A program made the position numbers and the translations under genes. A DNA stretch of 64,000 bases, from NCBI GenBank assembly GCA_964016885.1, contig OZ024746.1:28954001-29018000 (forward strand), written 5' to 3'. The notes beneath the pieces are model-generated. The model was given only the letters and a program-made list of their open reading frames with translations. It did not search any database and was not told the DNA's origin. Position 1 is the first letter of the stretch. Every line of letters begins with the position of its first letter. Positions 5,178-38,620 of the stretch are shown here, piece by piece. Origin of the DNA: Eledone cirrhosa. Taxonomy: Eukaryota.

Positions 5178-5533
5178 TGTAGAAGTTCTATTTAAATTGT
5201 TGGGATACCACAGGCAAATATTTTTATAACTGATATAAAGCACTCAGCAAATTATTGGAGTAAAAATACGATATATTAACAAATGGAAACTATATTTATA
5301 AAACCATATTTATTTCATTATACATATTGGTCGCATTCTTTAAGGGTATGGCAATATTTATTATACATATTGGTCGCATTTTTAAGGGTATGTCAATATT
5401 TATTTATAAAACTGATCTATATTATATTTTATCTGATGAAACCACACCATAATTTAACTTCGTGTCCTTGAAATATGTATAATGAAATAAATATGGTTTT
5501 ATAAATATAGTTTCCATTTGTTAATATATCGTA
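5178..5533 (+). mobile_element. Family A HHR-bearing fold-back element, copy 1
   Basis: Inverted arms 5267-5328/5472-5533. Head segment shared with the copies at 22818 and 46878. Flanked by TA-rich repeats. Confidence 0.8.
5426..5488 (+). ncRNA. Type I hammerhead ribozyme (family A)
   Basis: ATTTTAT-CTGATGA(5433-5439)-degenerate stem II-GAAA(5470)-TATGTA-TA|ATGAAAT. Confidence 0.65.
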
Positions 5534-14743: not shown

Positions 14744-16938
14744 ACACATTGCCAACACCTTTCCTGTAGGATAAGACATATGTAATTGAAGGTGTATTGA
14801 TACCACCAATATATACCACACTCAGCAAAAGATAACAAAATTACTGAACTAAACAAAGGCTTACACAAGACGTTGGCGACATATTGTCTGTGTGACACTT
14901 TGTGTGTTAGGAAAATTTATTGTACGTTTATAGTTATACATGGAGGGGGGGGGGTTATTTTAAGATAAGCTGTTTTGTAACAGAAAAGGGTGGAAATTGA
15001 TTGTGTTGACCCTTCATATGAGTAATAAACTTTAAGAGTTATCGGTGACATCCTATAATGTAAATTTGATGTTGGGTATTATGTATATTTGTTTTGCACG
15101 GAGTGTTAGTGAGTTCGAATTGTGCAGATGGTTGCATCGGGGTCCCCAGAAGAACAAAATATATTATTTTCTACATTTTGCTTTCTTACATAAGTATTAT
15201 TGTTACTACACCAGGTTGGTGATTAATCGTGTATTCCGTATAAATAGAGAGTTATCCATACTTATTTGTAGCATTAAGGCACAGTGCACACATACACACA
15301 AATACGCACATACACATGTATATATATGATAACACACATGCGCAGACACACACACACACATATATATATATATGTGTGTGTGCGTGTGTGTGTGTGTGTG
15401 TGCGTGTGATTTCTCGCATCACATGCCCTCTGCCTATAATGCTACAAATAAGTATGGATAACTCTTTATTTATACGGAATACACAATTAGTTACACAATG
15501 AAGTTACCTTGGAATAGATTTATTCGTCTCTATATTTCGGATTTCACATCCATCGTCGGGGGTTCCGAAGGGAGATGTTATTGTGTATGCAACTTGGATA
15601 CAAACTGAGGTGTATGCCACTTGGATACAAACTGAGGCTTGATCATGTTTGGTTGGGCCACCTGGATGAGGGTGGCTATGTTATAAGCCCTGAAACAAAC
15701 AATAACTCCAGGATATAACACTGATAATGTGCCTAGGTTTGTACATCGCATACACATGTCATCTAGATGAAGGTATATGTTATAAGAACTGCACCTCACA
15801 GGTACTCTAGGTCACAACATAGTTAATGTTGTCCAAGATATAGAGGGTAAGCATAAGGTCTTCCCACACGGAAAATTAAAACTACTTCATGAAGAAGAGT
15901 ATTGTAAAATATGTTTTAAAAAACTTTAAACTTGAAATTTATAAATTAAAACAATGAAAAATTGAAATCTCAAATAGTATCCGAGATATGGTATTTTATA
16001 ATTAGGGAATGACTTTATGCTCACCCTGTATAATCTGTGGCTGTGTGAAAGACAAGTCTACAGCACACATGCCACGCTCATAATTATATAAAAAGACACA
16101 AAGAATAGAACGTTAGAGACTTCTGTTTATATATATAAAATATAGCCATGAATGTGTTGCTATATTTTCTTTACCAACAGCAGCGAGTTACATCAAGTAT
16201 TTTAGTGTAGATAGCGACATATATCAAGTGGACTGTTAATAGTTGTGAGAATAAGAAATAAGATGCGTTCGCATCAGTAGTGTCTTTGGTGAGTAATACT
16301 ATCATATATCAAATAGACTGGAAATGTTAGTAGCTCGCTTACATCCTCTCATATCTCAATGATATGACATTAAGATGGTTAATGTTAATGCCTGCTTGTT
16401 TATGTAGTATGGTAGCATGTGTTTATGTAGGGCTGTATAGGTGTGTGTGTGTGTGTGTGTCTATATGTGACTATGTGAGTGTAATTGTGTGTCTCTCTAT
16501 GTATATGTGTAGATGTGAATTAGTGAGTGCATGTCTCTGTCTGTGTGTATGTGTGTGTAGATGTGAGTATGTATGCACGAATTTGTATGTATATATCTGT
16601 GTAGGTGTGTTTGTGTGTGAGTGCGAGAGTCTGTCTGTGTGTAGATGTGAGAGTATGTGAGAGCGTGGGTCTGTTGGTGAATATATGTGTTAGTATATGT
16701 TCAAGCATGTTTGTATGTGAATGCACGAATATGTGTCTGTTCGCTTGTGTTGGACAGAGGGGGTGGAGAAATTGTTTGAGAGCGCAGAACAACAAGATAT
16801 ACGATAATAAAAATATATATAAATAAACTAATAAAAGTCCTGCTTTTGGAGACAATGTCAGCTGCACTGCAGTAGATATTCAACATTCAATGTGTTGAAT
16901 GATGGTTTTGTCTTAATTGCATTAGCAATAACTACTGG

Positions 16939-20470: not shown

Positions 20471-20614
<144 letters not shown>

Positions 20615-20667
20615 AGTATGTGTGTATACGTACATACATATATGTATACAGACGTACAGTAGCATGC

Positions 20668-20698
<31 letters not shown>

Positions 20699-20793
20699 TA
20701 CATACAGGTACACATACATATATGCACGTATCAGTTTAGCGGACGCTTATTATAACGCTGATACGTGCATATATGTATGTGTACCTGTATGTA

Positions 20794-20826
<33 letters not shown>

Positions 20827-20979
20827 GCATGCTACTGTACGTCTGTATACATATATGTATGTACGTATACACACATACTTACATTTAAGTGCCGTACTAA
20901 GAGTGAGAAATGAAATTTCGTTTTCATTTTATTTCAACTTATCGTTCTCGGTATGCCCGACCGACATAACTCACTCGAT

Positions 20980-20987
20980 ATGCAAAT
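20980..20987 (+). promoter_or_regulatory. Octamer ATGCAAAT, present in each family F monomer and in the 38.3-kb copy
   Basis: Exact POU octamer about 80 bp upstream of the HHR, followed by the palindrome GAAAGTATATACTTTC. Function is inferred. Confidence 0.45.
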
Positions 20988-21061
20988 TAGGCTGCTCAGC
21001 CGTTAATTTTCATAAGGAAAGTATATACTTTCGAACGTTCAACTATCTGGCAGATGGGTAT

Positions 21062-21104
21062 ACGGTGCTGATGATAGCTAACAAGCTTGAAACTAGTACA
21101 TCGT
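21062..21104 (+). ncRNA. Type I hammerhead, family F unit 1
   Basis: ACGGTG-CTGATGA-tAGCT aaca AGCTt-GAAA-CTAG-TA|CATCGT. 6-bp stem I, palindromic stem III (ACTAGT), GUA cleavage after 21098. Confidence 0.88.
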
Positions 21105-21261
21105 TCCTGTGTCAGTGTTGAACAAAAAGGTGACGTGGTTGCCTTAACACCGTATGGCATAACATTCAGGCTGTTCAGTTTGTTTACAAACGAACAAAGC
21201 GGCGTTATAATAAGCGTCCGCTAAACTGATACGTGCATATATGTATGTGTACCTGTATGTA

Positions 21262-21299
<38 letters not shown>

Positions 21300-21535
21300 T
21301 GCTACTGTACGTCTGTATACATATATGTATGTACGTATACACACATACTTACATTTAAGTAAGTGCTGTACTAAGAGTGAGAAATGAAATTTCGTTTTCA
21401 TTTTATTTCAACTTATCGTTCTCGGTATGCCTGACCGACATAACTCACTCGATATGCAAATTAGGCTGCTCAGCCGTTAATTTTCATAAGGAAAGTATAT
21501 ACTTTCGAACGTTCAACTATCTGGCAGATGGGTAT

Positions 21536-21578
21536 ACGGTGCTGATGATAGCTAACAAGCTTGAAACTAGTACATCGT
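21536..21578 (+). ncRNA. Type I hammerhead, family F unit 2
   Basis: Identical to 21062-21104. Confidence 0.88.
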
Positions 21579-21735
21579 TCCTGTGTCAGTGTTGAACAAA
21601 AAGGTGACGTGGTTGCCTTAACATCGTATGGCATAACATTCAGGCTGTTCAGTTTGTTTACAAACGAACAAAGCGGCGTTATAATAAGCGTCCGCTAAAC
21701 TGATACGTGCATATATGTATGTGTACCTGTATGTA

Positions 21736-21766
<31 letters not shown>

Positions 21767-22005
21767 GCATGCTACTGTACGTCTGTATACATATATGTAT
21801 GTACGTATACACACATACTTACATTTAAGTAAGTGCCGTACTAAGAGTGAGAAATGAAATTTCGTTTTCATTTTATTTCAACTTATCGTTCTCGGTATGC
21901 CTGACCGACATAACTCACTCGATATGCAAATTAGGCTGCTCAGCCGTTAATTTTCATAGGGAAAGTATATACTTTCGAACGTTCAACTATCTGGCAGATG
22001 GGTAT

Positions 22006-22048
22006 ACGGTGCTGATGATAGCTAACAAGCTTGAAACTAGTACATCGT
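22006..22048 (+). ncRNA. Type I hammerhead, family F unit 3
   Basis: Identical to 21062-21104. Confidence 0.88.
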
Positions 22049-22205
22049 TCCTGTGTCAGTGTTGAACAAAAAGGTGACGTGGTTGCCTTAACACCGTATG
22101 GCATAACATTCAGGCTGTTCAGTTTGTTTACAAACGAACAAAGCGGCGTTATTATAAGCGTCCGCTAAACTGATACGTGCATATATGTATGTGTACCTGT
22201 ATGTA

Positions 22206-22257
<52 letters not shown>

Positions 22258-22431
22258 TGCTACTGTACGTCTGTATACATATATGTATGTACGTATACAC
22301 ACATACTTACATTTAAGTAAGTGCCGTACTAAGAGTGAGAAATGAAATTTCGTTTTCATTTTATTTCAACTATATATATATATAAGTATATATAAATATA
22401 TAAATATACATATATATTTATGATATGTATG

Positions 22432-28566: not shown

Positions 28567-29109
28567 TTGTTATACTTTGGGAAGGTCATGTTGCCAATAA
28601 GAAACACACGCACCAGTTGCTTTCACTCCAATTTATTATAAATTAAATTTATAAATTTAAGAATTTATAAATTTCCGGTTGGTTGGTTGGTTCCACAACC
28701 GGACGGTTGTTCATATATTGTCAAACAACTGGTGCGTGTGTTTCTTATTGGCAACATGACCCTCCCAAAGTGTAACAATATCGGTTTCAACACACGTTTT
28801 CAGATAAAGAATCTTGCAAATTCAGAAACGAAATATATATATATATATAATAAATGTAATCTGAGTTTTTCGAATATTAATAATAACATTCGATTCGTTT
28901 GCAATTTTGCAAACAAGCCTCAATTTTATAGCCATGTCAGTAGAATGAACACTTCATTCTTGCTCTTGTGTTGGCATTAATATTCGAAAAACTCAGATTA
29001 CATTTATTGTATTCAGCCATGTAGAGCGAAATTTTCTTTTTTATTTGATTTTGGCATAGCCGGCCATTTAAGGCTCGTATACAGGAAACTGACTGACCAG
29101 TCTGCTGAT

Positions 29110-29183
29110 ATGCAAATCTGACTGATCAGTGGATCTGCTAATATGCAGATCTGACTGATCAGCCAGTCTGCTAATATGCAAAT
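29110..29183 (+). promoter_or_regulatory. Three octamer motifs in 33-bp repeats (ATGCAAAT 29110, ATGCAGAT 29143, ATGCAAAT 29176)
   Basis: Seen directly, 80-150 bp upstream of the HHR. Function is inferred. Confidence 0.45.
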
Positions 29184-29260
29184 CAGGCCGATCAGTCACT
29201 GTGTATTTTTGAAAATAGCATATATTTTCACTAGCACTGAGAGTTTGGCAGGTGAACAGT

Positions 29261-29310
29261 GAGCTGTACTGATGAAGGGTGAAACCCAGAAATATTAGTG
29301 TCTGCAGTTC
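29261..29310 (+). ncRNA. Type I hammerhead (family G)
   Basis: GAGCTGTA-CTGATGA-aGGGT gaa ACCCa-GAAA-TATTAGTG-TC|TGCAGTTC. 8-bp stem I with G-U pairs; GUC cleavage after 29302. Confidence 0.85.
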
Positions 29311-29503
29311 TGTTCGCATGCCAACATAAGAGCAAGAAAGAAGTGCTGGCTATGAAGTGACATGGCTATAAAATTGAGGCTTGTTTGCAGAATTGCAAAC
29401 GAATCCAATGTTATTATTAATATTCGAAAAACTCAGATTACATTTATTGTATTCAGCCATGTAGAGCGAAATTTTCTTTTATATATATGAAAACAAGGAA
29501 AAG

Positions 29504-38108: not shown

Positions 38109-38620
38109 ATATGTATACAGACGTACAGTAGTATGTATATATATACATACGTGCACACACATATATATATATGTACGTTTGGATTTACCGAACATTTATT
38201 ATAATGCTCAGTTTGTTTGTAAACAAACATCCCGAATTTTTCCGTTTATCGTTTTCGGTGCGCCCGGGCGATTAACTCACTCGATATGCAAATTAGGCTG
38301 CTCAGCCGTTAATATGCATAAAGAAAGTATATACTTTCAGACGTTCAATCATCTGGCAGGGAGGAATACGGTGCTGACGATAGCTAATAAGCTTGAAACT
38401 AGTACATCGTTCCTTTGTCAGTGTTGATCAAAAGGGCAACGATGGTTGCTAAACACTGTACGGCTTAATTCGAGATGTTTGTTTACAAACAAACCGAGCA
38501 TTATAATAAATGTTCCGTAAATCCATACGTACATATATATATATATGTGTGCATGTATGTATTTATATACATACTGCTGTACGTCTGTATACATATATGT
38601 ATGTACGTATACATACTTAT
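38109..38620 (+). mobile_element. Diverged single copy of the family F retrozyme-like monomer with an inverted 5' arm
   Basis: Octamer block and HHR are conserved with the 21-kb array. Arms about 38109-38237/38468-38597. Confidence 0.82.
38368..38410 (+). ncRNA. Type I hammerhead (family F variant)
   Basis: ACGGTG-CTGACGA-tAGCT aata AGCTt-GAAA-CTAG-TA|CATCGT. It differs from the array only at N7 and loop II. Confidence 0.88.

Follow-up and report, generated by a model that had tools for sequence, protein, structure and literature searches.

An octamer-bearing module upstream of hammerhead ribozymes in Penelope-like retrozymes of Eledone cirrhosa: a candidate internal snRNA-type promoter

The stretch of DNA analysed here (the window, 64 kb in length) is part of contig C6 of a 3.0-Gb, AT-rich animal genome with SINE motifs of octopus-like appearance. 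It contains two families of repeats with hammerhead ribozymes: family F, present as a head-to-tail array and as a solo copy of an older subfamily, and family G, present as a solo insertion. Their features are collected in Table 1. Upstream of the ribozyme both families carry the octamer ATGCAAAT, which we take, like its NAG extension, to be an Oct-1 site. In F the octamer starts at 20980, 21454, 21924 and 38286, and the CTGA of the hammerhead is located at 21068, 21542, 22012 and 38374. The distance from octamer start to ribozyme core is hence 88 nt in 4/4 window copies, or 80 nt from the octamer end, in agreement with an earlier note on this DNA, which had placed the motif about 80 bp upstream of every F ribozyme and whose coordinates all proved correct on re-check.

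Table 1. Features of families F and G in the window (positions are those of the window)
Feature	Position	Strand	Remarks
Head-to-tail array of family F (3.4 units, period 470), inserted in (TA)n	20758..22371	+	3' end is the +345 site common to F insertions
Inverted 5' piece of F insertion, Penelope-type, approximate limits	20610..20757	-	
Extended octamer TATGCAAATTAG, F unit 1	20979..20990	+	Same sequence as the -77 element of host U6 gene L143
TCAG core, putative PSE core, F unit 1	20996..20999	+	Resembles host U1/U2/U5 YCART at -55 to -58
F palindrome GAAAGTATATACTTTC (TATA hairpin)	21017..21032	+	TATATA at 21022-21027, 42 nt from octamer start
F predicted transcription start	21052	+	From host spacing: 30 nt from TATA, 56 nt from TCAG
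F type I hammerhead	21047..21115	+	Core at 21068 (CTGATGA); helix III a 2-bp palindrome; cut predicted after 21098 (GUA)
Extended octamer, F unit 2	21453..21464	+	Ribozyme core at 21542
Extended octamer, F unit 3	21923..21934	+	Ribozyme core at 22012
Solo copy, older F subfamily	38285..38421	+	Octamer 38286, TCAG 38302, TATA 38328, ribozyme core 38374
Family G solo insertion, approximate limits	28977..29479	+	Inverted 5' piece at about 28850-28976
G 33-bp triplication of the octamer and TCAG module, 3.0 units	29101..29198	+	NAG extension only in the proximal unit (29175-29186)
G hairpin with TATAT (29221-29225)	29211..29229	+	45 nt from proximal octamer; predicted start 29250
G type I hammerhead	29254..29315	+	Core 29269; predicted cut after 29302 (GUC)

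Family G holds ATGCAAAT at 29110, ATGCAGAT at 29143 and ATGCAAAT again at 29176 (-159, -126 and -93), exactly where three octamers or near-octamers had been noticed before. These do not represent three gains, a reading that was rejected, but one duplicated module, because all of them lie in a single unit of 33 bp that occurs 3.0 times in a row. In a set of 36 G copies, ATGCAGAT is the usual sequence of the middle unit and the NAG extension is confined to the proximal unit, while ATGCAAATCAG is present in 28 of the 36. No head-to-tail G array appeared among the 30 G loci examined. A G-core pattern derived from the window copy matched that copy alone, because it differs from the family at two places.

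Within the window, ATGCAAAT occurs 11 times, against 5.65 expected and with at least 11 occurrences in 2/100 shuffles, which represents a mild excess when the window is considered by itself. Six of the 11 are inside family F or G; the remaining five (3770, 34401, 39396, 39526 and 40708) bear no relation to ribozymes. The exact octamer was found at -70 to -110 in 0/14 of the other CTGANGA..GAAA motifs examined in the window. Further hammerhead-like motifs, none of them with an upstream octamer, are located at 5433, 5890/5972, 22967/23186, 24932, 25149/25477, 37615, 45881, 47067 and 47295, and several form inverted pairs that are probably ends of Penelope-like elements. The segment 8001-14000, with a GC content of 43-54% versus about 32% elsewhere, is possibly a retroelement coding region. 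In an Rfam scan of the window the hammerheads of F and G stayed below the gathering score and gave no match.

At the scale of the genome, a 35-nt ribozyme pattern that takes no account of the octamer yielded 15,567 exact F matches (control, 0), which sets the copy number of F at 15,567 at least. For the study of conservation, 100 distinct copies were taken from C1, within its first 43 Mb. The 75 aligned as far as -105 were kept and the 25 shorter ones dropped; the exact octamer is conserved in 70 of these 75. Columns that vary at the level of F lineages number 0/30 between -90 and -61 versus 69/305 elsewhere (Fisher p=0.0014, a post hoc value, as the block edges were set after data inspection; p=0.048 in a longest-run permutation). 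Private divergence of the 12-mer (the extended octamer) compared with the rest of the copy is 4.2% vs 5.2% in the older subfamily (p=0.49) and 0.2% vs 0.8% in the younger one (p=0.26). The earlier description of the block as almost invariant is therefore correct for lineages within F, but individual copies decay no more slowly there; likewise, the conservation profile across copies reveals lineage-level invariance, but not a scarcity of private mutations in the motif. Contigs from four public runs offered no variant, among those listed, at 21452-21481 or 29160-29189; this is by itself weak evidence of constraint, because gaps of similar length occur elsewhere in F.

Families F and G had been treated as two families with the same motif. 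Their comparison with other repeats of the genome indicates that they are not independent, but are members of a single superfamily of Penelope-like retrozymes, whose lineages number at least six and share 41-66% identity over natural stretches of 450 nt, and two independent octamer gains were rejected in favour of shared ancestry, with lineage H bridging F and G by sequence. F, G and K present a type I hammerhead with core and helices I-III, as is typical of non-LTR retrozymes, and F (period 470) and K (period 467 bp) form short, non-coding head-to-tail repeats, the monomers of the superfamily measuring about 440-470 nt. The 450-nt stretches of F, G and K are 46-60% identical to one another, and TATGCAAAT is the sole 9-mer common to these three lineages and to all six stretches tested, in which ATATA at the TATA position is also invariant. 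No other part of the compact module upstream of each hammerhead is as well conserved as the octamer.

Lineage K was recovered by a ribozyme scan of 841 kb of flanks in which the octamer was not used. It includes an array of 30 listed units, 99% homogeneous (G000:C1:5738446-5751958), which is likely the kind of source locus from which monomer RNA is produced. The same scan, whose cluster counts are incomplete as it missed G and most H copies, revealed an octamer at -70 to -110 in 0/51 motifs of 14 unrelated hammerhead-like clusters. Two patterns, one built to exclude F and G (225 matches; control, 1) and the other TATGCAAATRAGGC (1,186 matches genome-wide; control, 9), led to H, I and J, older lineages whose ribozymes lie about 85-99 nt downstream and are either intact or decayed. 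Families M and N (L399 and L408), in which an extended octamer lies about 90-105 nt upstream of a hammerhead, show little other likeness to F and G. In H, I, J, M and N, all found via the octamer, its invariance is built in, and it is F, K and G (the latter through the earlier note) that test it; recovery of H, I and J independently of the octamer provided only 2, 1 and 1 usable copies, mostly truncated.

The module was next compared with the snRNA genes of the host. Of 48 matches to U6, 28 were examined. Eight of them exhibit TATGC(A/T)AAT(T/G)AG at -76 to -78, a TATA at -30 and a distal element shared with U1 and U2; six are cluster copies with a SINE inserted in the promoter, and 14 are dispersed matches without the promoter elements. 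Three types of host U6 promoter thus carry the octamer element (L142, L143 and the C19 cluster). In some units of the C19 tandem cluster (L148, L149, L151-L153 and L183) the SINE sits just upstream of the TATA and displaces the octamer by about 200 nt. For U6atac, only the top match of 15 holds the element, as TATGGAAATTAG; the other 14, like the 14 dispersed U6 matches, were judged to be retrocopies. Pooled over the three U6 types and the top U6atac gene, the Pol III element reads TATG(C/G)(A/T)AAT(T/G)AG at -76 to -78, with TATA at -30.

Among the Pol II genes, 14 non-redundant promoters were chosen from U1, U2 and U5 loci. Each of the 14 carries YCART at -55 to -58 together with a TATA-like, AT-rich box near -30, and a proximal octamer is present in none. 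Six further loci of this class comprise three with the same core, one U1 with TCAGG and two dispersed U5 matches that look like retrocopies, one of them with a chance-like match at -54. The octamer 12-mer is therefore present in 4/4 host Pol III promoters, a set of four picked as top matches, and in 0/14 Pol II promoters. The TATA-like box at -30 is common to both classes, and TATA was consequently rejected as proof of Pol III transcription. Other host elements are a distal one near -255 to -290, observed in U6, U1 and U2 but not in U5 or U6atac, the sequence AATTAAAT near -88 in Pol II genes, and a 3' box resembling AAAATCAGAC.

The comparison of the block with host U1, U2 and U6 that had been suggested for this locus gave a composite answer. 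The 12-mer of F, K and H is identical to that of host U6 genes L142 and L143, with TATA present, and the TCAG core resembles the YCART of U1, U2 and U5. Most retrozyme lineages combine the U6 octamer with a YCA core 16 nt later and a TATA at +42 to +45, which is a U1-like spacing. In 30 loci chosen by TATGCAAATRAGGC alone, YCA(G/C/A) begins exactly 16 nt after the octamer start in 25, and 20 have both YCA at this offset and TATA at +40 to +47, compared with a background at random positions of 1.9% for the former and 0.2% for the combination. A matrix trained on host U1/U2/U5 scored best at offset 16 in 14/18 representatives, with p<0.035 in 10/18, and gave background scores for K (p=0.20), H4, H5, H6, I3, J1, M and N. 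In K, a lineage both young and abundant, CCAC takes the place of TCAG. A core of the host PSE type at -55 to -58, at host spacing from the -30 box, is thus found in F, G and most of H, I and J, but not in K, M or N. The distance from core to TATA is 26-29 nt in the repeats, 25-28 in most U1/U2/U5 genes and 30-32 for the matching place in U6. From octamer to TATA there are 42-45 nt versus 46-48 in U6 (3-4 nt fewer), and from octamer to predicted start about 72-74 versus 76-78. The TATA keeps its 42-45 nt from the octamer whether it occupies the apex of a hairpin (F), its 3' arm (G, H and I) or its 5' arm (K).

Several host features are missing from the repeats. Neither the U6-type spacing of 46-48 nt nor the CCT core was found in them (42-45 nt and a YCA core instead), the host distal element has no match with fewer than 2 mismatches, the best scores for the 3' box (2.4-7.0) are within background, and AATTAAAT is absent. 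Conversely, no host gene among U1, U2, U5, U6 and U6atac exhibits the hybrid layout of octamer plus U1-type core. The proposal that each monomer carries its own snRNA-type promoter in both families thus gains a motif equal to the host U6/U6atac element and a U1/U2/U5-like core with TATA at host-like spacing, but loses the weight of two separate cases, as F and G share one origin.

Taken together, these data indicate that the feature is real and selected. Judged from sequence, it is most likely an internal snRNA-type promoter, a statement that covers both polymerases and can be made with good confidence. The more specific reading that we prefer, in which the octamer, usually a TCAG-like core and the TATA constitute a promoter that would be read by Pol II, is given a probability of roughly 0.55. 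Pol II is favoured because T4 (F) and T5-T6 runs (G and K) lie between the ribozyme and the next promoter, and the transcript would have to cross them to yield templates that bear the promoter.

The motif, its spacing, its match to host snRNA upstream elements, its lineage-level conservation and the Penelope-type anatomy of the insertions are directly supported, and they suggest a route in which factor binding, start site, polymerase, cleavage, circles and helper element would be as follows. The octamer would be recognised by a POU factor of the host and the TCAG core by SNAPc, and Pol II would start about 16-19 nt upstream of the ribozyme core; host spacing puts this start between TGGC and AG, 16 nt (F) or 19 nt (G) before the core and inside the outer arm of helix I. 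In a tandem array, the transcript would cross the promoter of the next unit and reach the next ribozyme. Two cuts would then discard a short leader with a cap, of 47 nt in F and 53 nt in G, and set free an RNA one unit long with a full copy of the promoter. This RNA would close into a circle, and a Penelope-like element would reverse-transcribe it into (TA)n.

The insertions of F agree with the last step, since they combine an inverted 5' piece (23/27), two alternative 3' ends, at +286 in 10/31 and at +339 to +345 in 14/31, and targets that are mostly (TA)n, a pattern described for Penelope in the available parts of two studies (PMC8557442, PMC11167929). In a set chosen for an intact core, where ends at the cut site are not visible, 23/27 F insertions reach upstream of the octamer and keep the promoter, and therefore the promoter must have preceded the ribozyme in their template, an arrangement expected of a circle or multimer. 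The idea that new insertions could be transcribed independently is favoured by this retention of the promoter, but only 10/69 F loci have a head-to-tail pair of exact cores, against 49/69 with a single one. Solo copies could fire into their flank but not make a promoter-bearing monomer, and are probably dead ends. No autonomous partner with an F/G-like terminal repeat was detected among the flanks analysed, though Penelope-like ORFs occur there.

The same internal promoter might instead be U6-like and read by Pol III, with leakage through the T runs producing the promoter-bearing monomers, and we consider this unlikely, although it is the strongest of the alternatives. The specificity of the octamer 12-mer for Pol III genes in the host speaks for it, as do the absence of TCAG in lineage K and, in the sources available to us, the use of Pol III by schistosome hammerhead repeats. 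In F, moreover, there is no T4 run from the predicted start to +323, and the 3' ends at +339 to +345 fall just behind such runs. Nevertheless, the second cluster of ends, at +286, lies ahead of all T runs, and a pair of ends separated by about 60 nt agrees with the 'tail' of Penelope as described in the portions of the literature at hand. The T6 runs of G and K before the next promoter and the octamer-to-TATA distance, shorter than in U6, are also at odds with Pol III, and TATA does not mark this polymerase in a host whose Pol II genes have a similar box. A different possibility, which we regard as improbable, is that the block is kept as RNA, in the form of two hairpins or a protein site in a circular RNA that serves stability or recognition by a helper RT, its likeness to U6 being incidental. 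The octamer is indeed the 5' arm of a hairpin in most of 17 single-sequence folds, the TATA is in a second hairpin whose stems differ between lineages, 79.6% of cells pair on the fixed structure versus 17-46% when it is slid, and the F monomer folds with z=-8.4, due in part to TA-rich palindromes. However, two-sided changes appear in 0/10 pairs, RNAalifold returned no consensus structure, the arm that pairs with the octamer arm changes its register from F/K to G/H to I/J, with the octamer arm itself fixed, the YCA core is partly in a loop, and a match to DNA upstream of host U6 is not something that an RNA function predicts. RNA and DNA constraints may also act on the block together.

Slightly less probable still is an octamer that acts as an enhancer-like POU site inherited from Penelope pseudo-LTRs, next to an ordinary TATA/Inr Pol II core or under read-in from outside, with no participation of SNAPc. 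This would suit the 8/18 representatives that lack a significant U1-like core, the promoters that Penelope pseudo-LTRs hold according to the accessible part of the literature, and an autonomous Penelope-like family of this genome, in which a reversed extended octamer follows the stop codon at 74 nt. A proximal, spacing-dependent complex would better suit the constant 16-nt offset to YCA and the constant orientation, and the octamer is missing from the corresponding position of all 51 unrelated hammerhead-like motifs. That the motif is merely a relic of neutral shared ancestry seems very improbable to us. The private divergence of copies, no lower in the 12-mer than elsewhere, is in line with it, but neutral decay after insertion is expected of any retroelement, and the motif is unchanged between lineages that are only 41-66% identical and better kept than the ribozyme flanks.

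The repeats have distributed the motif widely. TATGCAAATNAG occurs 45,223 times in the genome versus 1,088 for a reversed-pattern control (about 42-fold). Of 55 such sites in the first 14 Mb of C1, 40 are in the superfamily, 2 precede other hammerheads and 7 belong to the autonomous Penelope-like family. Extrapolation leads to about 30,000 superfamily octamer sites, a figure that comes from a non-random sample and counts tandem units separately. The suggestion that insertions might scatter POU sites through the genome is thus borne out in number, but not in use: the sites give no sign of being used by the host, because they decay like the rest of the copy.

The autonomous family (L386:1429-1520 and L372, on G000:C1) has RT and C-terminal GIY-YIG-like motifs, and its reversed octamer is directly followed by GGTAAGT, similar to a 5' splice site. 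Pfam and PDB returned nothing for the L386 ORF, which we presume to be Penelope-like from its motifs and from its Atlas neighbours, often molluscan. Two other repeat families (L373/L262 and L402/L409) carry the extended octamer without a nearby hammerhead. A metagenome scan gave 77 matches, most of them chance matches in coding DNA; about 22 are on eukaryote-like contigs and make up roughly seven repeat families (L289, L317, L335, L288, L291, L354, L305, L292 and relatives), in which 78-101 nt separate an extended octamer from a hammerhead-like motif of Penelope type; in one of these families, which has 8 contigs, the octamer borders an inverted arm. As the scan had no matched control, its matches were not counted as support.

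An internal promoter would account for the transcription of such repeats, and the one proposed here makes predictions on the start site, the length of the leader, the polymerase and the factors that can be tested at the nucleotide level. Most extended octamers of a 3-Gb genome appear to come from the repeats, which is raw material for POU-dependent regulation, and the snRNA promoter grammar of the host (U6 octamer at -77, U1/U2/U5 core at -57 and a TATA-like box in both) should be useful for guide-RNA cassettes. It is tempting, yet doubtful, to go further and propose that animal retrozymes and their Penelope-like relatives generally run on captured POU-octamer snRNA-type promoters, represented here by a hybrid Pol II promoter of U6 octamer and U1 core without 3' box that would have seeded the estimated Oct sites and most extended octamers of the genome. 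If true, this would give a reason why retrozyme circles are expressed constitutively and at high levels across animals; in the literature available to us, animal retrozymes are reported to be highly expressed in most tissues and a promoter is given only for newt and schistosome.

An internal snRNA promoter in a hammerhead repeat is already known in kind, from satellite 2 of the newt. Cremisi et al. (1992) reportedly described this hammerhead repeat with its snRNA-type promoter, and Coats, Zhang and Epstein (1994) are said to have located an octamer close upstream of its PSE. In the consulted parts of the literature, satellite 2 of newts and salamanders is a tandem repeat that combines a type I hammerhead, whose helix III is very short, with an internal promoter of snRNA type used by Pol II (PMC2220036, PMC6765202, PMC7229834). 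The repeats of E. cirrhosa, likened to it by description and not by sequence, are also tandem type I hammerhead repeats with an internal snRNA-type promoter, which is demonstrated to function in the newt and predicted here. They differ in their invertebrate host, in their conserved TATA box, in an octamer that copies the proximal element of host U6 genes and not the vertebrate distal element, and in their organisation into at least six dispersed lineages with Penelope-type ends. The newt design would thereby be extended to a distant phylum and to a whole superfamily.

The repeats of the superfamily share short non-coding tandem units, type I hammerheads and a low GC content with the metazoan non-LTR retrozymes, for which Penelope-like mobilisation has been proposed (PMC7229834; 10.64898/2026.07.22.740005, both as far as their available text goes). 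The main text of Cervera and de la Pena 2020 (PMC7229834) describes no endogenous promoter, both of its mentions of 'promoter' being T7 legends; the accessible text of the preprint by Li, Clavereau and Pollet 2026 (10.64898/2026.07.22.740005) has 0 mentions of promoter, octamer or snRNA, and neither of these texts names an octopus. The literature available to the search contained no earlier description of such a promoter in molluscan retrozymes and, among the papers listed, none with the 12-mers, nor were the match to host U6, the hybrid layout or the superfamily scale found in it.

The Pol III promoter of the Schistosoma Sm-alpha repeat is of the tRNA-like type, whereas the one proposed here is an upstream snRNA-type promoter, likely read by Pol II. 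In other respects the two systems are alike, at least in the portion of the Sm-alpha literature available: an internal promoter is followed by a hammerhead, and as cleavage leaves the promoter at the 3' end of the monomer, single copies cannot propagate, the same dead-end logic that applies to our repeats. Animal snRNA promoters consist of two parts, a proximal element with its centre 50-55 nt upstream and a box downstream of it, and the proximal element differs between the version for Pol II and that for Pol III (PMC1761439, in the part available). The repeats resemble them (PSE/PSEA with TATA or PSEB) in their bipartite layout of proximal element and downstream box, but, unlike them, join a U6-type octamer to a core and spacing of U1/U2/U5 type and do so without the distal element and 3' box of the host.
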